A stretch of 64,000 bases of DNA from a virus (Duplodnaviria > Caudoviricetes), in the IMG/VR virus record IMGVR_UViG_3300028410_000746; one strand, 5' to 3'. Positions 29,666 through 44,500 of this stretch are shown here, piece by piece. The notes under the pieces were generated by a model. That model did no database searches, was not told where the DNA came from, and saw only the letters and a program-made list of their open reading frames with translations. The position numbers and the translations under genes are program-made. Position 1 is the stretch's first letter, and each line of letters starts with the position of its first letter.

Positions 29666-32608
29666 TCACGCCTCCTCAGACTCGTCGGAAGCGTCCGGCA
29701 CGTCTTCGAGGCTCATGCGAGACGGCCTGGACGTACGGGCGTGGGTGCGACGCTCGGCCTGCGCCTCTTCTCGCTCGCGTTGAGTGGTCTCCACGCGCGC
29801 CGTATCAGCGGCCATGATGTTCTCGATCTCATCGTCGGTGGCCGCGTTGAGCAAGGACGCGTGGTTGCCAAAGTCAACCTCGTTGGCCATGTACCGCGTG
29901 TCCCAGTCAATCAGCGCCGTGAACGGCAGGAAGTGAGGGTTGTCTCGATTCTTCAGACAGCCAAACTTCGTACGCCCGCGCGCGCGCAGCTCCGCGTTGA
30001 GGTAGGTCGTCGTGATCACGTCCGAGGACCTCTCCGCCTCGTTTGCGTCGGCCAGCGCCTGCGTGCGGTACACGCCATCGCTCTTGTCTGCGTCGAGCTT
30101 ACCCTGGCGGTTGATCTGGAGCAGCCCCAGGACGCCCACGCGCTCTCCCTGGTTGAACGTCAGGGCCAGCCTCTTGGCATCCCTCAGGATGGAGTTGAGG
30201 TCGGTGTAGTAGTTGCCCGAGAACTCGGCCGGCTTCAGGAGCGCGAAGTGGTCGATCACGCACATGTGAATGGGCGTCTGTGCGTGTCGCATCTCCATGG
30301 CCTGCTTGAGCTTGGGGATCGTCATGTCCTCGTCCGGGGAGTGCACGTAGACTGACCCGTAGCTGTGGCCCCGGTTCGCTTCGATGTCGTCGATGATGTG
30401 GTCGTAGAATGCGATCTGCTCCGCCGTGATCGGATTGCCCGCCTCGTCCTCGCCATCACGGATCACCCGGTACGTGAGCTTGGGCCACCCCTGACCCTGA
30501 AACTTCGGGTGGTTGGAGTGCATCACGTACATGATGCGCTGGAGGTGCTCGACCGACATCTCCATTGACAGGTAATAGACGTTGTACTGGAGGAGGAAGG
30601 CGGCGCGGTAAATCCAGTTGAGCGCGAACGACGTGTTGTGGGTGATGATGTCGTTGACCACGAAGCTGTGGTGCTCGGGCACGCTCAGATCATAGGTCAT
30701 TTCCACGCCCTTGGGGGTGATGGACTCGATCTGCTCCCAGGCTACCTCACCCCCCAGATGGCGCTCCAACTCCGGCTTGAGTGTCGTAAATAACGCCAAG
30801 GAATCCGCAGTCAAGCCCGCCCTTTTGCGTGCCTGACCGACATAACGCCAGGAACCTGTATCAGTGGCGACTCTATGGTTGTCTTCCAACCCCGCAAGTA
30901 GCTCACTGGGGAACACCCGGTCATCCCCACAAGGCAAACGATTCGCCAGTACCTCGAAACGCTCACGCTTCCCCGGCACGACCACCTGAGCACAGAACTG
31001 CTGCTTACCCGGCCGGGTAATCACTCGCACGGTGTAGAAAAGGTACGGCTCGTCTTTATAGGTAGTCGCAACAGGGCGCACCGTAGACGGAATGCCCAGA
31101 CGCAACAGCAAACCCTGGACTCCCACGGCCAACTTCCGGCTCACCGATGTGTAAGTGATGTCGTTGCGACGGCTATCGGAGGTTCGGTCAGGGCGTTCAT
31201 GATCACCGGTGTGGCAGGACCCGTCAGTAGCCCAGAGAGCGCCCAACAGGAGCGCAATCTGCGTATCGGGGAGACCAAACAGTTCCCCAGGGATGAACTT
31301 TTCATGTGAGCCTACCTGCCACAACCCAAGAGACCGCAAACGCGCCGCAAGAGGCGACACCATCTCCGAATTCCCGAGCCCCAAGCTCCGGCTCACTCGC
31401 AGGAATGGCGCCCGGTCCGAGGTCTCCTCCCGACACCAATTGAGGGTCTCATAAGTGGCAGGACCCTCCTGGTAACCCAGCACCTCCAAACAAGCGATGA
31501 ACACGTCTTGCACTTCTGTACAGGTCGCAGTCAAGCCAAACGTTGACTTGCCCAGAGTCCCATCCCCCAGGAGCAAACCGATTGCCTGCACTTCCGCGTC
31601 GGAGAAGTCCGTGCGGGGCTGAGGCACTTTCATCACAGACGGTACACCTACCCAAGTACCTTCGGACAGCTCTCCAACTTCACGCCACGAGCCGCCACCC
31701 TCCGCAGTCCACAGAGGGTGATTTGCAGTAAGCGTAACGGTACGCCCCGAGGAGGTTCGCACCTCAAAAACCTCGCGCTCCCCATTCTCTACGAGATGCG
31801 AGGCCTGCGCCTGTACCAACAACGGCTCGGCGCCTTCGTGTTTGAGGGCCGTGACTACAGGGAGTGCGTTGTGGTTATAGAGGTCTCGCACGCTCTCCAG
31901 CTTTTTGGTGTCGTGGTTGAAGACTAACGTATCCCCTGCCATGCACTTCAGCTCTCCGGTTGAGGCGGCGTGGGTCCACATCTCACCCGGCTTGAGTCCT
32001 CGGCACACCACGTCAATGTCTTCGAGTCCACACAGACATCCCCAGGTCAGCTTCTCGGCTGCCAGGACTCGGTTCATCTCGTCTCGCGCGAAGTCCGTAT
32101 CCTCCACGATGTCGGCCTTCGTCCTGGAGCCCGAGCTGTGGCTCATGAGGCGGTCGGAATGCTTCATGAGGTAGAGCATCGCGTCCCGGTATCCCTTCAG
32201 GTGCAAGGTCTTGCGTCCCTCCTTCATTGACATCCCGTTGAAGAGGATGTCGTTGGCCGTCTTGAGGGCGATGTGGAGGTCCTGATCACGCTGCCCCTCC
32301 ACGACGTCATGGACAAGGGCCTCGAAGTCCGCGCCGGTGTACGTGGTAAAGGTGGCCTGGACCTCCTTGAGCCTCTCCGAGGTGACCGCCTCACCCTCAC
32401 GCTCGTAGTAGTCGTGCAGACTCTGGGGCTTTGGCAGCTCTCCAAACTGCGTGGCGAACCCCTGGATGAAGTCCCAGATGTCCTGGTCTTCTGCGTCTGG
32501 GAGGCGGAGGTCTGAACCTGAGAGGGCCGCGTAGTTACGCTTGAGGTCGTCCTGTGGGATCTTACCATCCACGTCGAGGACACTGCGAAGGATCTTGGTG
32601 AGGCTCAT
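29666..32608 (-). CDS. dnaB: DnaB-like replicative helicase interrupted by an intein
   Basis: Spliced P-loop ASTGELK/T; YLSMEM, VIDHF, LLQINR and AERSSDVI motifs. Confidence 0.9.
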   Translation of the reverse strand: MSLTKILRSVLDVDGKIPQDDLKRNYAALSGSDLRLPDAEDQDIWDFIQGFATQFGELPKPQSLHDYYEREGEAVTSERLKEVQATFTTYTGADFEALVHDVVEGQRDQDLHIALKTANDILFNGMSMKEGRKTLHLKGYRDAMLYLMKHSDRLMSHSSGSRTKADIVEDTDFARDEMNRVLAAEKLTWGCLCGLEDIDVVCRGLKPGEMWTHAASTGELKCMAGDTLVFNHDTKKLESVRDLYNHNALPVVTALKHEGAEPLLVQAQASHLVENGEREVFEVRTSSGRTVTLTANHPLWTAEGGGSWREVGELSEGTWVGVPSVMKVPQPRTDFSDAEVQAIGLLLGDGTLGKSTFGLTATCTEVQDVFIACLEVLGYQEGPATYETLNWCREETSDRAPFLRVSRSLGLGNSEMVSPLAARLRSLGLWQVGSHEKFIPGELFGLPDTQIALLLGALWATDGSCHTGDHERPDRTSDSRRNDITYTSVSRKLAVGVQGLLLRLGIPSTVRPVATTYKDEPYLFYTVRVITRPGKQQFCAQVVVPGKRERFEVLANRLPCGDDRVFPSELLAGLEDNHRVATDTGSWRYVGQARKRAGLTADSLALFTTLKPELERHLGGEVAWEQIESITPKGVEMTYDLSVPEHHSFVVNDIITHNTSFALNWIYRAAFLLQYNVYYLSMEMSVEHLQRIMYVMHSNHPKFQGQGWPKLTYRVIRDGEDEAGNPITAEQIAFYDHIIDDIEANRGHSYGSVYVHSPDEDMTIPKLKQAMEMRHAQTPIHMCVIDHFALLKPAEFSGNYYTDLNSILRDAKRLALTFNQGERVGVLGLLQINRQGKLDADKSDGVYRTQALADANEAERSSDVITTTYLNAELRARGRTKFGCLKNRDNPHFLPFTALIDWDTRYMANEVDFGNHASLLNAATDDEIENIMAADTARVETTQREREEAQAERRTHARTSRPSRMSLEDVPDASDESEEA
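30635..31945 (-). mobile_element. Class 1 intein (437 aa) with LAGLIDADG homing endonuclease, in the DnaB P-loop
   Basis: Starts CMAGDTLV, ends VVNDIITHN followed by Thr; LAGLIDADG blocks IGLLLGDG and LGALWATDGS; codon usage visibly AT-richer than the flanks. Confidence 0.93.
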
Positions 32609-35631: not shown

Positions 35632-36216
35632 TTACCGGGAGTTGCGCCTCACGTGACGCCACACCTCGATCGCCGACTCCCCGAACATCTCACTGGGGGC
35701 GGGCACCTCCAGTCGAGTCTCATGGAGAATCCCATCCGAAATGTTGGAGCGGGCTTGCACCTGATGAGAGATGAGCCCGCCCACCTCCTCAACCGTGAGC
35801 TGATGCTTGCGCCCATCGTTGTAATAGAACCCCGCCGAGATGAAGTCCTCGACGCACTCATGACTCAAACACTCTCGGATGACGTTGGAGGCGCCGAGGG
35901 TAGGCATCACGACGTCCAGCGCGAAGAGCGAGATGATGCGAACCGGCTTCAGGAGGTGGATGACCTCGTGGACCTTCTTCATATCGGTGAAGTCCAGACA
36001 GACGGCATCTCCCTTGGGGTGTTGGTCCGTCGGCTTGTAGACACTCGGCTCGCTGACGAGGCTCCGCCCGATCTCACACTGGCCGGCTCCCAGATCCAAC
36101 ACGCACCCACATGCAGGAGGTCCGAGTTGGCGAAAGGCTCGCTGATGACGTGGCTGCGACGCCTTCGCCCACGTGGCATAATCGCTCCAGAACTTGTCGC
36201 TCGCATGGGACATCAC
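35632..36216 (-). CDS. Putative class I SAM-dependent methyltransferase
   Basis: VLDLGAG motif I and a LDF motif; substrate unknown. Confidence 0.55.
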   Translation of the reverse strand: MMSHASDKFWSDYATWAKASQPRHQRAFRQLGPPACGCVLDLGAGQCEIGRSLVSEPSVYKPTDQHPKGDAVCLDFTDMKKVHEVIHLLKPVRIISLFALDVVMPTLGASNVIRECLSHECVEDFISAGFYYNDGRKHQLTVEEVGGLISHQVQARSNISDGILHETRLEVPAPSEMFGESAIEVWRHVRRNSR

Positions 36217-36286: not shown

Positions 36287-36943
36287 TCAGTTGAAGGAGA
36301 GGCTGACTCCGAACACGGAGATGAGGTCTCCAGTGCCGTACTCCACTGCCGCACCTCCCAGGAGGCCGAGATTCTTGGTGAGGTCTACCCCCAGGCTCAG
36401 GCCTCCTTGCTTGAGTCCCGAGTGCGCCTGTACGTGAAGCATGCGCCAGTAGAAGGGCTCGAAGGCCAGCACCGGGTCGAACATCTCTCCAAGCTCTCCG
36501 CCGAGGTTGCTTGGGAGCCACACGAAGCCTAGCTTGACGCGAAGGCGAAAGCCCCACTCCGGGGCCACCGGGGGCTTCTGTTTGGTGACCGCCACGTTGT
36601 TGTCCACGCTGAACTTGAGCTTCCAGCGGCACCACCTCAGCTCCCCCTCCAGCTTGTCGTCGGTCAAGACTTGGCCATCTCGCGTGATCACGACCCGCTG
36701 GTCCTTGAACTCCATGTCCAGGTCCCCGGACTGGGCCGAGTCGATCATGCAGTTGTGGTTCTCGGCCACTTCGGACAGCTCGGCCGCCTGCGCGTTCGTC
36801 AGACACTTGTACCCAATAGGACACTCCGCAGGCGGCCGCTCCAGGGTGCGCAGCTCTCGCTCCTGAGCGTATACATCCTCCGCGACCAGGACGGTGTTGA
36901 GAAGGACCAGGAGGGCGGTCAGGAGGACGTACGAGCGTTGCAT
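36287..36943 (-). CDS. Secreted envelope protein with C-terminal amphipathic beta-strands (outer-membrane-protein-like)
   Basis: Signal peptide ending VYA/QE; alternating strands ending ISVFGVSLSFN. Confidence 0.7.
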   Translation of the reverse strand: MQRSYVLLTALLVLLNTVLVAEDVYAQERELRTLERPPAECPIGYKCLTNAQAAELSEVAENHNCMIDSAQSGDLDMEFKDQRVVITRDGQVLTDDKLEGELRWCRWKLKFSVDNNVAVTKQKPPVAPEWGFRLRVKLGFVWLPSNLGGELGEMFDPVLAFEPFYWRMLHVQAHSGLKQGGLSLGVDLTKNLGLLGGAAVEYGTGDLISVFGVSLSFN

Positions 36944-36951
36944 GGGCTACC

Positions 36952-37491
36952 TCACTTGAGCGCGTCCAGAATGTCCTTGGATACGCGTTTGGGACCTTCG
37001 ACCACGGTGATCTCGACCTTGCCGGGCTTGGTCAGGATCACCGTGTCAACGTCCGTGTCTTTGACTCCAGTTGGAAGGCGCAGCTTCTTGGTGGAAGCCT
37101 CCCCTTCTTCGGTCTCGGGGACCGCGACCTCCAGGACGTTACGGTCCCGGAAGGGGTTGCGTCTGCGGTCGACTACGGTAACCTCTCGCTGTACGAATCC
37201 TTCGTCGTCAGGCTCGCCCACTTCGATCGGCTCGCCGTCTTTCTGCCGACCCTCAGGCACACGGTTCACCTGCACCTCAAGGCTGGGCACGTCTTCTGCC
37301 TCGTCCCGGCCAAAGAGCCACCCCAGTACGCCGCCCACGTTGAACGCATCACCCACCCCGAAGAGGAGGAGGACTACCGCCACGACCACGACCACGAGAG
37401 CAATCACGAGTGCCAGAGGGTAGCGCAGCGTATAGTTCCAGACCGTGAGGCCCCACCGCTTGATGCGGCTCCATGCGGTCTCATCACTCAT
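36952..37491 (-). CDS. Membrane-anchored protein (inner-membrane spanin-like position)
   Basis: Long N-terminal hydrophobic segment followed by a soluble domain; ATGA-coupled. Confidence 0.7.
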   Translation of the reverse strand: MSDETAWSRIKRWGLTVWNYTLRYPLALVIALVVVVVAVVLLLFGVGDAFNVGGVLGWLFGRDEAEDVPSLEVQVNRVPEGRQKDGEPIEVGEPDDEGFVQREVTVVDRRRNPFRDRNVLEVAVPETEEGEASTKKLRLPTGVKDTDVDTVILTKPGKVEITVVEGPKRVSKDILDALK

Positions 37492-37954
37492 GGTAGTCGT
37501 CCGTACGGTCGTCCACGAAGGGAGAGTCCACGAAGGTCACCTTGGGCGGCGAAGGACGGAGGACGTCCTCAGCGCGTGCGAGGCTAAAGGGCATCGTGGA
37601 GGCTGAGTCCGCCTGTGGAAGCGAGATCTGAGGTACCAGCGCAGCAGTGGGCGCAGCAGTGGGCGCCGCAGCGGGAGCTGCTGGACCAAAGATGGGCGTG
37701 GCCTGTGATCCACGGGCTCCCAGTCGACCTCGCATGATCTCGGCAAGAGGGCCCGAGAGCTTCTTGCCGAAGTTGTAGGCGAAGAGGACGAGCAGGATGT
37801 CGAACATCGTGTTCGGCACCGCCTTGGTGGCGGCCCAGAACCAGATGTGGGCTCCAAACACGACCCAGCACATGAGGCGGCCCATGCTCAACTCGTTATT
37901 CTCAATGAGGACGGCGCCCCACTTGACGGCTTTGATACGGTCCCACATGGTCAA
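37484..37954 (-). CDS. Holin-like two-TM membrane protein
   Basis: M-x-M start; LSMGRLMCWVVFG and DILLVLFAYNFGKK segments; Pro/Ala-rich tail. Confidence 0.6.
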   Translation of the reverse strand: MTMWDRIKAVKWGAVLIENNELSMGRLMCWVVFGAHIWFWAATKAVPNTMFDILLVLFAYNFGKKLSGPLAEIMRGRLGARGSQATPIFGPAAPAAAPTAAPTAALVPQISLPQADSASTMPFSLARAEDVLRPSPPKVTFVDSPFVDDRTDDYHE

Positions 37955-39120
37955 CTCTCCTCAGTATGATAGGGTAAGTGCAGGTGCAAGGTCGTACCCT
38001 CTCCAACGGTGCTCTCCGCGTCGATAGTACCACCTGCACTGCGCACAAAGTGATAAACGAAGTACAACCCCAGACCCGAGCCTGTATCCACGTCTCGCGT
38101 GGTGAAATACGGAGTGAAGACTTGCTTGAGCGTGTTGGCGTCCATGCCACACCCGTTGTCCGTAAAGCTCAGGACGATGCAGTTCGGGTGGTGGGGCTTG
38201 TTACACATGTGCGTAAGGATGCGTATGGACGCCTCCTCTTCCAGGCCCTTGGTGGCACGCATGGCGTTGTCGAACAGGTTGGTCAAGACTTGGGAGAATC
38301 GGGGCCCGGACATCTCAATGAGCTTGTCTTGAGCGAGGTCATTCTCCATCGAGAACACCCCCACATAGCGCTTGGTGGGCTCCACGAAGCTCATTGTCTG
38401 CACGTAGTTGTTGAGCGCATGTCCCAGATCAAGGAAAGCCCCCTGGGGAGCCGTCAGCTCACGCATGGGAGCGGTCATGTCGTTGAGGATCTGTGACATT
38501 CGCAGGAGCGCCGTCCGGGTGCCCTCAAGAGAGGTAGAGAGGTCGACGTCTTCGGACTCCGAGGAGATCTCCAGGAGGTCAAGGTATCCGCGAGCGGTAG
38601 CCAGAGGCGTCTTTAGCTCGTGGTTGAGACCGAAGAGCATGATCTGAAGCCTCTCCGCCCACTTGTGCTCCTCCTCTGCCAGGATCACGGCGTGTGTCGC
38701 CGCTACCTCGATGAATATGATCAGTGTCGCCCCAAACGCATCATGCCGATAGAAGCGTACGAGATGCTCATCGGAGCGTCCCTTGAGGTAGAGACCTTTA
38801 ATGAGCATCGGCTGGCGGAACTCCCCCAGGGCAAAGAGGGTGTCCAGGAGGGTATGGCAATCCTCCCGCACAAAGTCGTACAGGGAGCAGTACCCAAGCT
38901 CGTCCAGGGTGAGACCTACGTACTCCAGGGCCGGGGGGTTGGCGTGGAGGAGGTCTGCGTTGAAGTCGGTCTGGAAAATGACGGAGACGTTCTCATAGTA
39001 GCTGGCGAGACTTGCAACCACCTCCACGCCCTCGGAGAGATGACGATCCTCAGGCGGCCTTCGCCACATGCCTCGCCACTTCTTCCAGAAACGACCGAGC
39101 TGCGAAATGGTCTTTCTCAT
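37951..39120 (-). CDS. Soluble sensor histidine kinase (PAS-HisKA-HATPase)
   Basis: H-box NHELKTPL, N-box NLFDNA, G1 DNGCGM, F-box FTPYFTT, G2 GSGLGL; PAS-like ANPPALEYVG; no TM segment. Alternative start at 39069. Confidence 0.95.
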   Translation of the reverse strand: MRKTISQLGRFWKKWRGMWRRPPEDRHLSEGVEVVASLASYYENVSVIFQTDFNADLLHANPPALEYVGLTLDELGYCSLYDFVREDCHTLLDTLFALGEFRQPMLIKGLYLKGRSDEHLVRFYRHDAFGATLIIFIEVAATHAVILAEEEHKWAERLQIMLFGLNHELKTPLATARGYLDLLEISSESEDVDLSTSLEGTRTALLRMSQILNDMTAPMRELTAPQGAFLDLGHALNNYVQTMSFVEPTKRYVGVFSMENDLAQDKLIEMSGPRFSQVLTNLFDNAMRATKGLEEEASIRILTHMCNKPHHPNCIVLSFTDNGCGMDANTLKQVFTPYFTTRDVDTGSGLGLYFVYHFVRSAGGTIDAESTVGEGTTLHLHLPYHTEES

Positions 39121-39430
39121 AGATCCGCTCTCCCGTGGCCGAGGCGGCCCGATACTCAGGGCTTTGGGGGTGACACCCGGTCAAGAATATGACCGGGCAC
39201 GTATGGCCCTCTTCCCGTAGCCAATGGTAAAACTCCACTCCTCCAGTGCCGTTGATGATCAGATCAATGACCACGCAGTCCGGGTCGTTCCCCGCTTCGG
39301 AGAGGCTCTCCTTGGCCAGTCTGATGGCGTGCGCCTTCTCAGTGCACACCTCCACGTCGTAACGCAGGGAGAGGATGGACTTGAGCATGCTCGCCATCTC
39401 GGTATCGTCTTCGATTACCAGGACCTTCAT
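39050..39430 (-). CDS. Single-domain response regulator (CheY-like receiver)
   Basis: MKVLVIEDD, phospho-acceptor VVIDL, IFLTG and conserved K; no output domain. Confidence 0.93.
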   Translation of the reverse strand: MKVLVIEDDTEMASMLKSILSLRYDVEVCTEKAHAIRLAKESLSEAGNDPDCVVIDLIINGTGGVEFYHWLREEGHTCPVIFLTGCHPQSPEYRAASATGERIYEKDHFAARSFLEEVARHVAKAA

Positions 39431-39434
39431 AAGA

Positions 39435-39875
39435 TCACTTCTCTCTCTGGGGACCCTGCACAGGAAGTGCAGGCTCTTGGTCGTTAGTCTTGCTCTCCAC
39501 CTTCTGAGTCGCAGCGGCCGTCTGGAGGTCCACCGTCTTCATGAAGTAGGTCGTAAGGCTGCCGACCAGGAGCAGGATGATGGGCCATAACCACTTCATG
39601 GTCTTGATGGAGCCGTTGATCTGCTGCAAGGTCGCCGTGTTTGCCATGACGAGCTTGGTGATCTCCTTGCGGTCCTCAATGTCTTGCTCCAGGGTCTGCT
39701 CGACCGACTGGAGCTTGAGCGTCATCTGAGACTGGTTCTCGGAGACCTCCTCAAGACCGGACCCGAACGACTCAAAGCGCTTGAAGATCTGATCGTCACG
39801 TGTCTTACGGACGGACCTCTCCGCCGTAAGGCGCTCTTCGAGACGTGTGAGCCTCTCCCTTCCCTCTTCATTCAT
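39435..39875 (-). CDS. XhlA/holin-like coiled-coil membrane protein
   Basis: RLTRLEE start, coiled coil and one C-terminal TM (KWLWPIILLLVGSLTTYF). Confidence 0.65.
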   Translation of the reverse strand: MNEEGRERLTRLEERLTAERSVRKTRDDQIFKRFESFGSGLEEVSENQSQMTLKLQSVEQTLEQDIEDRKEITKLVMANTATLQQINGSIKTMKWLWPIILLLVGSLTTYFMKTVDLQTAAATQKVESKTNDQEPALPVQGPQREK

Positions 39876-40045
39876 TTGGGGCCCCCTTCGCGTCGCAACA
39901 GGGTGCGAGCTTGGTCGGTTTGGTGTCGGATCTCATCCGTCATACCTTCCTTGACTGCCCTCGTCTTCAAGTATACCAAACGACCTTTGGCCCATTCTAC
40001 TGCGCGAGTACCTCTCAAATCAGTGGCACGGAGCTTCCTTGACAT
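39872..40045 (-). CDS. Small basic protein (57 aa, MSRKLRATDLRG...REGGPK)
   Basis: Not in the ORF track. AAGGAGG RBS; its stop overlaps the next ATG (ATGA). Confidence 0.65.
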   Translation of the reverse strand: MSRKLRATDLRGTRAVEWAKGRLVYLKTRAVKEGMTDEIRHQTDQARTLLRREGGPK

Positions 40046-40075: not shown

Positions 40076-43000
40076 TCAGGGGCAATCCGGGTCGATTCCC
40101 GGCGTCAGAGGATCACGAGTATCCGCGACCTCAATATCATCAGGCCGGGGGAGACGTCGCCCTCCCTGAACCAAGGGTCGACCCTCGATTCGGTACCGGT
40201 CGACGGCGTTGCTGCCCTCTCCCAGACCTGTCGGGTGGGTCTGTAGTACCAAATCCATAAACTCATTAGTGAGGGCCCCGGACGTGTCAAGCTCCTTGCC
40301 CAAACGCAGGCCCGTAGCGATCACGAGCTGAAGCTCGTCACCATAGCTGACCTGCCTCTCACTGGTCGTGACGCTCTGCTTCTGAACACGCACGAGCAGC
40401 GCAACCCCCAGGAGGGCTCCGCCGTGCATTGAGAGGTCCTCAGGGCGAGGCGAAGCGAGGTATCCAAGGTCCTTGGAGACGCGTGGGCCCGAGAGCGTCA
40501 TTGCGCCTCCAGGGTTACGACCACTGGCTACCGTCGCCGTGCCGCCACGGTAGGTGCGGTAGAGCAGGAAGTTCGGGTCGTACCCAGTAAGGGCTGCCGA
40601 GCCCGCCGCCGTACCATCCGAGAGCAGCAACGCTCCGTCAAGCCACGTCTTCGAGAGCGCGCGGTCGTAGCGGTAATCACCCGGCACGTCCAGAGATACG
40701 CCAGGAGTGAAGAAGCGCTCGGCAGATCGCCCGAGACCCTCTCCGAGGAAGTGTGCGTCCGAAGCGAGGATACCCAGGGGCAACCGCTCGGTAGCTCCCA
40801 GCATCTGCGCTCCCACGTAGCGGGCGATGGTCACTCCTCCAGCCGGAGCCGGGTGAGCACGAACCTTGGACGGGATCGGGGCGTCCGCAGCAGACGTGTA
40901 GGGGTAGGCGGCCAGCGAAAGGTAGCCCACGTCCGTGTAGCTTCCCGAGACCACCGGGCCCGAGAGCGCCCCGGTTCCCAGCGTCGTGACGAAGGGGAAA
41001 GAGGCTACGATCTCCACAACCCCAGGGTTCTCCACGCGCGCTTGAGATGGGTCCTCAAAGGGCTGCCCAAGCTGCGTGATCTGCGTGGGGTTCTCCGAGG
41101 TACGCTTGGGCACGTAGTCAAGCAGCTCCACGCTGCCCGTGTCCGTGGTCGAGATGGGCATGGTGCCGTAGATAGCTCCCTGGTAGGGGATACGCGTGGA
41201 GACGACCGAGATCTGGTCTCCCGCCTCGGCAGGTCCCGGTACGAAGAGCTGGTAGCTCCTGTCCGCTGTGCCTGCACCTGCCAAGCGATGCACGCGCGTG
41301 TAGTCCTGCGTCCAGTCGTCGAAGAAGAAGGCCGCGAACTCGAAGACGAGCGGGCTGTCCACCAGCTCTCCTCCCAGGTAGGACATGTCCAGGACGTCCT
41401 CCGGGATCACGAAGGTGTTGTTCTGCGTGATGATGAAGCTGCGGCGCTCTCCGTCCTCGCGCAAGAGGTTGTCACGCCCCACGCCCGAGTCCGTACGGAA
41501 CGGCGCTGCGGCCGTGTCCGAGAAGTTGGAGACGCCGGGGCTGTCCGTGTAGAAGTCCTCCTGCCTGTAGACGGCGAAGAGGCGCGCGATGCCGTAGTTG
41601 GCCGGGATCTCAATACCCCGCACTCCACCCGCATTGTAGTAGCGACACGCGAGCGCGTTGACACCACCAGGGCCTCCGCCCACGCCGGAGAGGTCGGGGT
41701 AGGTCCCGAAGTCTCCCAGGGTCAGGTTGAGCGGATCATAGACCGCCACGACCCGCTGCTGAATGAACGGGGCGTTGACCGACTGCGAGCCGGAGAGGAA
41801 CAGGTGGTTGATGCCGTACGCAGGAGCGGTCGATGTGGCCGTTCCTGCGGCGCGTGAGCGTACGAAGGGCACATCATGGCGTCCCAGTGCCCCTCGAAGC
41901 TCGCGAGGCACCAGAAGCGAATCTGAGCCCGGTGTGAGATTGAACAGGCCGGTCACGTCCGAGTAGCTGCGCGCCGAGGGGACCGGCTGTGGGTCCATGC
42001 GTGCCGAGATGTTACGCATCGGCTGGTAGATCAGCGTCTTCGAGCCGGGATCAACATAGGCCTCTCCCCATACCGTCTCGGGCGTCTCAGGCTCACGAAG
42101 CGAACGCACAGGAGTTTGAGCGTTGCGCAGGTGCGGGTACGACTCGCCGGGGAGCACGTTGGAGCGTCGAATGTTCGCGGTCGGGCTCGCTGCTTGGTTC
42201 GCGAACGTGTTCTCGCGCACGAAGAGTGACGGGGTGGCCGCGTCAAGGTCAACGTAGAGGCTGACCTCCGGAGAACGCGCCAGACCCTGGACCGGATGGT
42301 AGAGCAGGTCATGCGAGAGGTAGAGGGCCGAGTCGGTCGCGGCCGTACGGCCCGACGCCAGCGCGATGAACAGGCTGTCGTCAGTCTCCGAGCACTGCTC
42401 CAGGTAGAGACCCCAGGTACGGTTGGTCGTGCCGCCCGTATCAAAGCCGGGTGCTCCGCCGTCCGGGGTCTGAACCACAAGAGCACCTCCCGCCACGTGC
42501 CCTACGACCCGGAACGCGCCGTGGTTGAGGGGACGCGTCGAGGTAGGGTCAGTGCCGGGAGTGAGCAGCAAGAAGGCCCCCGCCTCCAGGATGGCGTCAA
42601 TGTCTGCGCTAAAGTCCAGGCTCACGTCTACCGTGCCCCCTGCCGGACCTTGAATCGACGTGGCCGAGTTGGCGAACGTGATCGCGGTCGTACCCGAAGA
42701 CGCGACCGAGAGGCCGTCAAGAGGCGTACCCAGGACCACGAAGTCTGGATCAACGTCGCCGCTGCTGGTCGAGTACGCGTCCCGACGATCAGGGTCCGCG
42801 CTATCCGGGTCCGTGTCCCCGTACCATACGCGCACGGGCGCGTGCGTGGTCCCGTCGTACTCGTAGGGATGGACGAATCGGACCTTCTGGTCGTTGACCG
42901 ACGCGAACGTGTTGCGGTACTGGTCCAGTGCGATGGCGACCACATCACGAGGGTTCCAGTTCTCGGCCGCCGCCGAATCCTGACGGAAGATGTCCACCGT

Positions 43001-44500
43001 CGGGTTGAAGGGGAGGTCCGAAGAGTTCTGAGTCGACCCGTTCGATCCCAGGACGACCAAGTTGTCCGGCTGGAGCACGCACGCATCCGAGAACACGCGA
43101 CGGAACCCGTCAGGAGCGTCCCCCTTGATCTGGAAATCAGGAGCGACGGCAGAGCCTCCGAGGTAGTCCACCTGGAAATGGCGCGTCCCCTTCACGCCTG
43201 CTGAGGAGCGCTTCCAGGTCGTCTGCATCTCTCCCTTGAGAACGCGGCCGAGGTTGTGCTTGAGGAGCCCGTCAAAGTCGACCGGGCCCATGCCCACGAC
43301 GTGTCGGAGATCGTGGATGTCGTCGGCCACGACCTGATCGCTGAACAGGCCCAGAGGGTGTCCAGTGACGTGGAGAATCTGTGCTCCGATGGCATGGTTC
43401 GTAGCCACGGTCCCACGGTCACCGCGCGTCGCCAGGGTCAGCGTGTTGCCTACATAAGACGTGTAGGCCATGACCTCGCCATCAACCTTGATCAGACCTC
43501 CGCCCGAGTTGAACGTCGTAGAGGACGCCACGGTGTCCACGCTCAAGGAGAGGTCAGTGGGTCCAACAGCTCCCGTCAGCGTGATCGTGGGGAGCACGCG
43601 CGCCTGAGTACGGTCACTGGCAGAGGGATTACGGTTGACCGCACCCGCCTGTGCCAGGGCTGACCAGTTCGCCGTCGAGCGGCGGAAGACGAAACACAGG
43701 GGGATGGCGTAGACGTAGCCGTCCACGGTGCCAAGGAGCCCGTTGCTTCCATCGCCATCACCCGCGCGCCAGAGGCCTGCATCGCCCAGCGTGTCACACT
43801 GGTTGGTGAACGTGTAGAGAGCGTTGGCCGAAGCCGTGGGCACGTCCAGCGTGCCTTGAGCTTTGATCTGCGCGTTGAAACCGAAGGGGTTGAGCGTCGG
43901 GTTCACGGCAGAGACAACACGCAAGCGGTACTGGATCTGTACGCGCTCCGTGGTCTCAATCCCGATGGCCGGGTCGAGGAAGTCCTGTACGGGGTTGGTG
44001 CCTCCGTACTCGACGTTGCCGTAACGCCAGACCGTATCCACGCCGGGCTTTGAGGCCGTGCCTGAGGGAGCGATCTGCGCCTTCCACACCTCCAGGAATA
44101 CGAAGTTGACGTCTGCGTCGGTGGTCGTGGCCTGAGGAGGCGGGAGCGTGATCGCGTTACGCGTGCCGACGTTCCCTGTCCCGATCACGGGAATCATCCA
44201 GCCGTTGACGTGGGCCCAGATGATGTCTCCGTCGTCCCCGGAGGTCTCCTTGCCCAGCCAGAACAGGTTCGAGGCCTGCGTGGACGTCTCGAAGTCGTCT
44301 GCGGCTCGGATAGGGTCCCCGATGAACCCGGAGGGGATGTTGGCCTTGATGAGCGCGCGGCGAGCCTCTTCGCTGATCTGAGAGAGCAGGTTCAGCTCCG
44401 AATCCAGCGGCGGCCGGTTCTTCTGAAAGACCGGCGAGAGGAAGTTGCGAGCCTGCGCGGTCAACGTGCGGGAGACGCCTTCTCCAAGAAAATCGGTCAT
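40076..44500 (-). CDS. Large tail/baseplate structural protein (DUF4815/DUF6519-like N-terminus)
   Basis: 1474 aa; N-terminal VFQKNRPPLDSELN; paralogous to 51555-54131. Confidence 0.75.
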   Translation of the reverse strand: MTDFLGEGVSRTLTAQARNFLSPVFQKNRPPLDSELNLLSQISEEARRALIKANIPSGFIGDPIRAADDFETSTQASNLFWLGKETSGDDGDIIWAHVNGWMIPVIGTGNVGTRNAITLPPPQATTTDADVNFVFLEVWKAQIAPSGTASKPGVDTVWRYGNVEYGGTNPVQDFLDPAIGIETTERVQIQYRLRVVSAVNPTLNPFGFNAQIKAQGTLDVPTASANALYTFTNQCDTLGDAGLWRAGDGDGSNGLLGTVDGYVYAIPLCFVFRRSTANWSALAQAGAVNRNPSASDRTQARVLPTITLTGAVGPTDLSLSVDTVASSTTFNSGGGLIKVDGEVMAYTSYVGNTLTLATRGDRGTVATNHAIGAQILHVTGHPLGLFSDQVVADDIHDLRHVVGMGPVDFDGLLKHNLGRVLKGEMQTTWKRSSAGVKGTRHFQVDYLGGSAVAPDFQIKGDAPDGFRRVFSDACVLQPDNLVVLGSNGSTQNSSDLPFNPTVDIFRQDSAAAENWNPRDVVAIALDQYRNTFASVNDQKVRFVHPYEYDGTTHAPVRVWYGDTDPDSADPDRRDAYSTSSGDVDPDFVVLGTPLDGLSVASSGTTAITFANSATSIQGPAGGTVDVSLDFSADIDAILEAGAFLLLTPGTDPTSTRPLNHGAFRVVGHVAGGALVVQTPDGGAPGFDTGGTTNRTWGLYLEQCSETDDSLFIALASGRTAATDSALYLSHDLLYHPVQGLARSPEVSLYVDLDAATPSLFVRENTFANQAASPTANIRRSNVLPGESYPHLRNAQTPVRSLREPETPETVWGEAYVDPGSKTLIYQPMRNISARMDPQPVPSARSYSDVTGLFNLTPGSDSLLVPRELRGALGRHDVPFVRSRAAGTATSTAPAYGINHLFLSGSQSVNAPFIQQRVVAVYDPLNLTLGDFGTYPDLSGVGGGPGGVNALACRYYNAGGVRGIEIPANYGIARLFAVYRQEDFYTDSPGVSNFSDTAAAPFRTDSGVGRDNLLREDGERRSFIITQNNTFVIPEDVLDMSYLGGELVDSPLVFEFAAFFFDDWTQDYTRVHRLAGAGTADRSYQLFVPGPAEAGDQISVVSTRIPYQGAIYGTMPISTTDTGSVELLDYVPKRTSENPTQITQLGQPFEDPSQARVENPGVVEIVASFPFVTTLGTGALSGPVVSGSYTDVGYLSLAAYPYTSAADAPIPSKVRAHPAPAGGVTIARYVGAQMLGATERLPLGILASDAHFLGEGLGRSAERFFTPGVSLDVPGDYRYDRALSKTWLDGALLLSDGTAAGSAALTGYDPNFLLYRTYRGGTATVASGRNPGGAMTLSGPRVSKDLGYLASPRPEDLSMHGGALLGVALLVRVQKQSVTTSERQVSYGDELQLVIATGLRLGKELDTSGALTNEFMDLVLQTHPTGLGEGSNAVDRYRIEGRPLVQGGRRLPRPDDIEVADTRDPLTPGIDPDCP

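Follow-up and report, generated by a model that had tools for sequence, protein, structure and literature searches.

A virus-encoded two-component system beside candidate holin-like genes in a clade of huge lake phages

Known systems and the locus

The timing of lysis is a central question in phage biology, and the controls known for it are clocks intrinsic to the holin and antiholins. Lysis inhibition in T4 involves the holin T and the antiholins RI and RIII and works by direct protein binding on the periplasmic and cytoplasmic sides, with no phosphorylation. In Staphylococcus, the LytSR two-component system, which consists of the membrane kinase LytS and the DNA-binding transcriptional regulator LytR, controls the holin-like and antiholin-like proteins Cid and Lrg. 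In the present work, we examined a complete histidine kinase (HK) and response regulator (RR) pair encoded in a 64,000-nt stretch of viral DNA, here called the window, which corresponds to bases 58049-122048 of a 125,429-bp IMG/VR virus record with a CheckV completeness of 27%. The pair lies in a minus-strand cluster of seven genes encoding, in reading order, p57, p146, RR, HK, p156, p179 and p218. The pair and the membrane proteins next to it may form a phage-encoded module that controls holin triggering or the timing of lysis by phosphorylation, a reading to which we give a probability of about 45%.

The locus resembles LytSR in combining a two-component system with putative holin-like membrane proteins that would decide cell death and lysis; it differs in having a soluble kinase with a putative PAS domain and a regulator without a DNA-binding domain, and in being virus-encoded. 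With T4 lysis inhibition it would share the post-translational gating of a holin by a signal-sensing accessory protein, as proposed here, there being no sequence relationship between the two. Single-domain regulators of the CheY type bind helical peptides (FliM, CheZ) in a phosphorylation-dependent manner, and in our model of RR with p146 the output of a receiver-only protein would likewise pass through a short conserved helix. In contrast with the CheY type, RR is nearer to the OmpR family, the predicted contact uses the active-site/alpha1 face and not alpha4-beta5-alpha5 alone, and the predicted partner sits in a membrane.

Lysis by PBSX requires the membrane protein XhlA together with the holin XhlB and the endolysin XlyA (PMC5589764). 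In PBSX (Bacillus subtilis), as well as here, a coiled-coil, C-terminally anchored protein follows the tail genes and a small two-helix protein is found downstream. However, in the window the kinase and receiver genes sit between both membrane genes, p146 has an extra conserved N-terminal helix and falls short of the Pfam XhlA cut-off, a diderm host is probable, as p218 resembles an outer-membrane protein (OMP), and no endolysin adjoins.

Histidine kinases have been described in phages before: phiCDHM1 encodes an AgrC without a regulator (PMC3901668), and pelagiphages have kinases beside curli genes (PMC9599517). Those kinases have no cognate regulator and look recently host-derived, whereas the window holds a complete pair that belongs to a phage-specific, clade-wide lineage and is linked to membrane proteins of the phage. 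In a survey of jumbo phages, only divergent receivers unlinked to kinases are mentioned (PMC7824862), and the literature searched contained no description of a complete kinase-regulator pair from a huge phage, which is not proof of novelty. The pair is of interest as a rare example of a complete two-component system with an evolutionary history of its own among viruses, as opposed to a recent acquisition from a host. If the lysis reading is true, placing holin-like proteins under a phage-encoded sensor kinase and regulator would bring signal-dependent and reversible control, which would suit huge phages with long and costly infection cycles. RR and residues 8-30 of p146 also make a small, tractable pair for studying how receiver-only regulators reach membrane targets.

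The kinase-receiver pair and its lineage

The original prediction, made from the letters of the stretch, had listed seven minus-strand open reading frames (ORFs) at 36287-40045. All seven were present, and their tight packing was also borne out, with overlaps of 4, 71, 4 and 8 nt and gaps of 4 and 8 nt. RR (126 aa, 39050..39430, minus strand) matched Pfam Response_reg at 1.2e-12, and this was the sole domain detected in the Pfam scan, so that the description of RR as a receiver-only regulator stands. The residues E7, D8, D9, D56, T84 and K106 were invariant in seven orthologues and aligned to MtrA and PhoB. The nearest solved relatives were OmpR-family receivers (MtrA, 9e-12), and the family has an invariant segment of its own, LTGCHxQSPEY.

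The kinase (389 aa, 37951..39120, minus strand) has a putative PAS domain followed by HisKA and HATPase domains, with Pfam matches to HisKA (1.9e-8, above cut-off) and HATPase_c (1.2e-20). The H-box residue His167 in FGLNHELKTPLA was invariant in 12 sequences, and N281/N285, D321xG323xG325, F335 and G347xG349xG351 were invariant in 12 homologues. The claim that the catalytic motifs are intact thus held across the relatives for the H, N, G1, F and G2 boxes as well as for the receiver residues. The kinase also has an HExxT motif, which is typical of bifunctional kinase/phosphatases. A transmembrane (TM) segment was looked for in HK and none was found. When the first ~130 residues were compared as a profile (A7) with the PDB, only PAS domains were matched (BMAL1 at 6.6e-5 as the best, 3ewk at 1e-4, VicK, WalK and KinA), the first half of the fold being aligned. 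In the Pfam scan, PAS was not detected in the window kinase and was faint in the homologue P0007. The predicted soluble PAS kinase is therefore soluble by its lack of a TM segment and a kinase by HisKA and HATPase_c, and its putative PAS domain is recognized by profile over half of the fold.

The RR and HK genes overlap by 71 nt, or by 20 nt when counted from a second ATG at 39069, which would give a kinase of 372 aa. The longer form is favoured because the homologues conserve the N-terminal extension, and the two genes appear to be translationally coupled besides overlapping. By every sequence criterion the pair is complete, intact and cognate. The receiver-only architecture implies a post-translational output, and this part of the original prediction is forced by the architecture itself. 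We also observed an invariant CxKxHH..C loop between the N and G1 boxes of the kinase (residues 306-314, C306-C314) and an invariant Cys29 and Cys86-His87 in RR; these residues may form a metal or redox site.

Relatives were recruited via the SNF2 helicase gene, and a kinase pattern scan of IMG/VR gave no match. Eleven loci with the two-component system were examined (the window, L002, L031-L037, L050 and L051). In 10 of them, a tail-like gene of 1,410-1,470 aa is followed, usually after p57, by p146, the receiver and the kinase. The eleventh, L036, has the same p146-RR-HK trio, and its contig starts just upstream with an unidentified partial ORF, the tail gene being out of view. The receiver of L034 is present, having been missed by the gene finder. 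Synteny in relatives, a check named beforehand, was thus confirmed, as the p146-RR-HK order was kept in 11/11 loci. In the rearranged L036 (L036:2345-5176), genes for a PKD-repeat protein of 667 aa and a Gp80-family protein come after the kinase in place of p156, p179 and p218, and the p146-RR-HK trio therefore moves as a unit.

The kinase family comprises 17 close homologues with 38-55% identity, beyond which the search jumps to cellular kinases at E 1e-17 and ~28-31% identity. Because of this gap, we regard the kinase as a viral lineage and not as a recent host copy. Among GenBank phages there was no DNA similarity to the cluster, and tblastn with the kinase gave 24-28% identity, mostly to host-like fragments. 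In an SNF2 tree, the nine carriers whose locus includes an SNF2 gene formed one clade with 100/100 support, so that one gain suffices. The SNF2 divergence reached ~1 substitution per site. By sequence and comparison, the pair was acquired once by a clade of lake phages of ~400 kb and has been kept there, and since the module is syntenic in 11 loci and confined to one clade, it is best regarded as a maintained phage function. In the complete genome G001 there is a single receiver, a single HisKA kinase and one further GHKL ORF that is unrelated. Thus, the circuit is closed, with no phage-encoded DNA-binding partner for the regulator.

Membrane partners and the lysis reading

Relatives without the two-component system carry, at the slot of the module, a three-TM protein of 135-165 aa (TMx, alignment A8), which matched the holin family phrog_1299 in 5 of 8 members (best 6.6e-5) and nothing else. 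In genome scans, TMx was absent from the two-component loci, from the partial genome G000 and from the complete G001, and it was found once in G002, a complete genome without the system. The slot, between the p57-like gene and p179/p218, is filled by p146-RR-HK-p156 in the carriers. The replacement of TMx by the module suggests that phosphorylation may time lysis. The possibility that p146 or p156 is a diverged TMx was rejected (hhalign 1.5% and 0.6%, respectively).

The candidate output or partner of RR is p146, a coiled-coil, tail-anchored membrane protein encoded at 39435..39875 (minus strand). Its family has 18 members, all in this clade, as against 17 kinase homologues, and both proteins were found in every locus examined. 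A conserved N-terminal helix (residues ~8-30, consensus ERLTRLEERLIAERSxRKTRDDQ, alignment A1) is followed by a variable coiled coil, a conserved GSIKTxKWxWP motif and a single TM segment, which is C-terminal and clear (Kyte-Doolittle hydropathy, KD, of 1.8-2.55 across the family). The charge distribution would place the N-terminus in the cytoplasm. A separate idea, that the N-terminal helix mimics the DHp helix of the kinase, was rejected (hhalign 0.2%).

The layout of p146 is that of an XhlA-type protein, i.e. a short coiled coil with a single C-terminal TM segment, encoded after a tail gene and next to a candidate holin, p156. Family signals of this kind were seen in both directions. Of eight p146 members, six matched the 'hemolysin' (XhlA) family phrog_1193 (best 7e-5), four the holin family phrog_689 (best 8e-5) and three, below the cut-off, Pfam XhlA (best E 0.015). 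An exhaustive search with the p146 profile gave ~20 remote matches, which covered the coiled-coil and TM part only; when ten of these were scanned, P0161 passed Pfam XhlA (36.6 vs 34.7 bits) and six more had XhlA or hemolysin-PHROG signals. Since direct family scans fail, p146 is filed as XhlA-like in architecture and not as a member. The XhlA/holin-like label given to it originally is therefore upheld as to the TM segment and the weak two-way profile signals, and not as to the Pfam cut-off.

Modelling of the regulator together with the membrane protein had been proposed as a check. The complex prediction for RR with residues 1-100 of p146 gave an ipSAE of 0.34 (three runs, 0.31-0.43), and the best of three controls gave 0.00. 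The value is graded as 'weak support', a mark reached by 58/80 solved complexes and 2/110 mismatches; passing values of 0.60 or less were obtained with 7/80 solved complexes and with 2/2 of the mismatches that passed. On the p146 side, the predicted interface consists of residues 11-29, which lie in the invariant, clade-specific extension that has no counterpart in XhlA-type relatives. On the RR side, it consists of the alpha1/active-site/beta4-alpha4/beta5-alpha5 face and includes the invariant T84-H87, S90, E92, K106, D107 and F109. The modelled interface would fit phosphorylation-controlled binding.

The second candidate membrane component, p156 (37484..37954, minus strand), is small and has two helices of moderate hydrophobicity. 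Alignment A5 showed a conserved core of ~80 aa with both helices and a variable Pro/Ala-rich tail; the helices have a KD of 1.0-1.7 and are followed by KK and a basic stretch. By tblastn, a homologue was found in six further loci (L002, L031, L032, L034, L035 and L037) and not in L033 or L036; L050 and L051 have a size-matched ORF (91-98 aa) at the position. Look-alikes in the Atlas were small viral proteins of unknown function. Of the original 'holin-like 2-TM protein', the two conserved helices remain and a 2-TM topology is plausible, and the KD values do not secure it.

We propose the following mechanism for lysis control. The PAS domain would read a cytoplasmic cue, such as the energy state, the redox state or a small ligand, and the kinase, with its HExxT phosphatase motif, would set the level of receiver phosphorylation. 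The receiver, lacking an output domain, would bind the cytoplasmic N-terminal helix of p146 via its active-site, alpha1 and beta4-alpha4 face, and this binding would restrain or free the oligomerization of p146, together with p156, in the inner membrane, the two membrane proteins being analogous to XhlA/XhlB of PBSX. Downstream, p179 in the inner membrane and p218 in the outer membrane would act on the envelope, possibly in a spanin-like manner, so that the membrane event is gated late in infection. The full picture of a viral phosphorylation clock, in which a PAS kinase and a receiver docking to an XhlA-like partner time the membrane breach and have replaced a conventional holin, is on the unlikely side; it would be the first two-component-gated holin.

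Lytic enzymes were also looked for. The earlier statement that no endolysin is visible in the window was confirmed by scans for PG_binding_1, SLT and Phage_lysozyme. PG_binding_1 and Phage_lysozyme were likewise absent from G000 and G001 in scans of these genomes. In G000, SLT was found only inside a virion-type ORF of 1242-1257 aa (G000:C1:23804-27532, outside the window), which is probably a virion-associated cell-wall-degrading protein rather than an endolysin. One relative without the system, L021, encodes a protein with PG_binding_1 and a GH46 (chitosanase-fold) domain between p218 and SNF2 (L021:8480-9406), a candidate endolysin of an unusual type; it had no counterpart in G000-G003. The lysis reading gains in plausibility because a holin-like TMx occupies the slot in relatives without the system, because TMx is missing from the complete G001, and because the L021 enzyme lies in the same interval.

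Several results weigh against this reading. All holin and XhlA assignments are weak. The 'holin' name of TMx is a PHROG label at E 1e-4 to 1e-5. p146 did not reach the curated cut-off of XhlA PF10779 in either hmmscan or the genome HMM scan, and a composition of coiled coil plus TM segment can give spurious weak matches. An identity of p146 with DUF7201 (Atlas feature score 0.93) was dropped after hmmscan and the genome HMM scan gave no confirmation. Family scans gave no match for p156, the hydrophobicity of which is marginal, and its 'holin-like' label therefore comes down to size and position. The RR-p146 score lies in a range where the prediction tool is more often wrong than right, and the result may partly reflect learned HK-RR geometry because the same face docks kinases. 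No endolysin was found in the window, and the sole small SLT enzyme of G001 (235 aa) lies ~220 kb from the module with no adjoining membrane genes. No homologue of p179 or p218 was found by tblastn in the stretch examined of the rearranged loci L036 and L037. Finally, the run search returned only lake-water DNA metagenomes and no RNA runs containing the sequence.

Alternative roles, the older cassette and the genome context

The possibility exists that the module controls the envelope and not lysis. It would then remodel or seal the envelope together with p179 and p218, e.g. in superinfection exclusion, receptor masking or an envelope-stress response, and p146 and p156 would be sensors or effectors instead of holins. 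The weight of this reading, which we hold to be clearly unlikely, depends on the two proteins encoded at the end of the cluster. The first, p179 (36952..37491, minus strand), has a strong N-terminal TM segment, which would anchor it in the inner membrane, and a periplasmic domain predicted to be beta-rich; its model had a pLDDT of 68 and no credible fold match in AFDB or the Atlas. Homologues were found by tblastn in 18 further loci, six with and 12 without the system, and 15 were aligned (A4).

The second, p218 (36287..36943, minus strand), is the ancestral partner of p179 and has a signal-peptide-like N-terminus, four conserved Cys and a C-terminal amphipathic sheet of six strands (alignment A3). 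Its model had a pLDDT of 88, and >95 in the C-terminal sheet. The sheet matched a designed six-strand barrel at Z 9.8 and OMP barrels at Z 4.5-5.2, a range that is common with the tool, and among the AFDB neighbours are entries named 'outer membrane beta-barrel'. With Foldseek, no PDB match fell below E 0.01, and BFVD returned only uncharacterized proteins. The C-termini in the family are SLSFN, YFAF or YFAFW, and this aromatic end resembles the C-terminal signal of OMPs. Judged by their models, p179 and p218 look like an inner-membrane/outer-membrane pair. The pair recurs between the last tail gene and SNF2 in many phages of 200-450 kb (window 36287-37491; loci L007-L029), which makes it a separate lead to undescribed envelope-spanning phage machinery. 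p218 has no lipobox and p179, predicted to be beta-rich, no periplasmic coiled coil, so that both fall outside the two-component spanins; they may be spanin-like in function and not members of the family. The pair may be a trans-envelope device not yet described, with a beta-barrel outer-membrane arm, and a further possibility is that it is a new kind of spanin in which this arm takes the place of the lipoprotein.

A conserved trans-envelope pair that would need the host Sec and Bam machinery favours envelope control, as does the fact that neither protein is a canonical spanin (p218 not being a lipoprotein, p179 not a coiled coil), with no endolysin nearby. However, among the system-less loci, which are more distant huge-phage contigs of 200-450 kb, 12 have p179 and 13 have p218 without kinase and receiver (tblastn). 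Since both proteins occur without the system and are undetected in L036 and L037, the tie of the module to them is loose at best. The envelope reading also has to account for the holin signals of the replaced gene and the XhlA-type signals of p146. The membrane anchor of p179 and the secreted beta-strand nature of p218 agree with the envelope neighbours described originally, and neither protein is restricted to phages with the two-component system.

Another possibility is that the module acts on host signalling, as a phosphate sink, a cross-phosphorylating kinase or a CheY/DivK-like regulator, with p146 as a mere membrane tether. This would reprogram host motility, the cell cycle or envelope stress during the long infection by a huge phage. 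The receiver without an output domain, its closeness to OmpR-family receivers and the absence of any other two-component component from the complete G001 are compatible with such a role, and orphan phage kinases are thought to address host regulators (PMC3901668, PMC9599517). We nevertheless find it quite improbable: the pair is complete and its genes overlap, which argues for a closed circuit, the distance of the kinase family from cellular kinases speaks against a recent host copy tuned to the host, and the strict co-inheritance of p146 and the replacement of a holin-like gene would be left unexplained. Very improbable is an assembly checkpoint of the virion or tail, or a passenger with no current role, for while the module trails the last large tail-like gene and could report the assembly state or persist by linkage, it is not obvious what a membrane anchor on p146 would do in tail assembly, and a decaying passenger is excluded because the catalytic residues are invariant at 38-55% identity and at an SNF2 divergence of up to ~1 substitution per site. 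Whatever probability the lysis, envelope and host-signalling readings leave over goes to roles that we have not foreseen.

The original prediction had taken the cluster as one unit, and this did not hold: only p146-RR-HK, usually with p156, are linked. The first gene encodes p57, a small basic protein (pI 11.2; 39872..40045, minus strand) with a strong ribosome-binding site, AAGGAGG, which is ancestral and lies outside the two-component insert. The p57 family (A9) aligned with a ~100-aa protein that follows the tail gene in system-less relatives (A10) at an hhalign probability of 93% (E 3.3e-7). Since homologues of p57, p179 and p218 are found in relatives, the ancestral cassette consisted of the tail gene, a p57-like gene, TMx, assorted genes, p179, p218 and SNF2. 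As these homologues belong to an older cassette that also occurs without the system, the cluster consists of two layers. The assorted genes include a J-domain protein, and we observed J-domain (DnaJ-like) proteins of 340-440 aa in the tail-to-SNF2 cassette of system-less relatives at L009:6100-7398, L021:6441-7550, L012:8604-9635 and others. An S-adenosylmethionine decarboxylase-like gene was also present in this cassette in L012 and L014.

The source DNA comes from lake-water metagenomes, as identified by the run search. The kinase of the window is also found on a 373,477-bp contig, and the nearest complete relative, G001, has 437,490 bp with terminal repeats. On the minus strand, large structural genes with weak tail, fibre and baseplate matches come first, followed by the seven-gene cluster and by replication genes for an SNF2 helicase, a DnaB with an intein, a primase and PolA. 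The gene conserved just upstream of the module encodes a tail/baseplate-like protein of 1474 aa (40076..44500, minus strand) and is separated from the cluster by a gap of 30 nt. The protein matched the tail protein family phrog_1101 weakly (2.5e-6), and the upstream genes also gave Beta_helix at 3.9e-6. Its homologue precedes the module in 10/11 two-component loci and is present in ~20 relatives without the system. The predicted position directly after tail genes is therefore right as to the distance, and the tail identity consists of weak matches. Scans for sigma-70 promoters and terminators over 35-45.5 kb gave results no better than those obtained with shuffles.

A 194-aa ORF at 35632-36216 (minus strand), between p218 and p106, has a VLDLGAGQ-type motif and by eye resembles S-adenosylmethionine-dependent methyltransferases. 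It had no Pfam or PHROG match, and tblastn gave no counterpart in the related loci, which suggests a recent insertion. An intein with a LAGLIDADG endonuclease is present in the window's DnaB-like helicase (29666-32608), and several relatives (L032, L033, L002 and L023) have an intein in the SNF2 helicase instead. Since the inteins alternate between the DnaB-like and SNF2 genes, they move among neighbouring replication genes in this group of phages.

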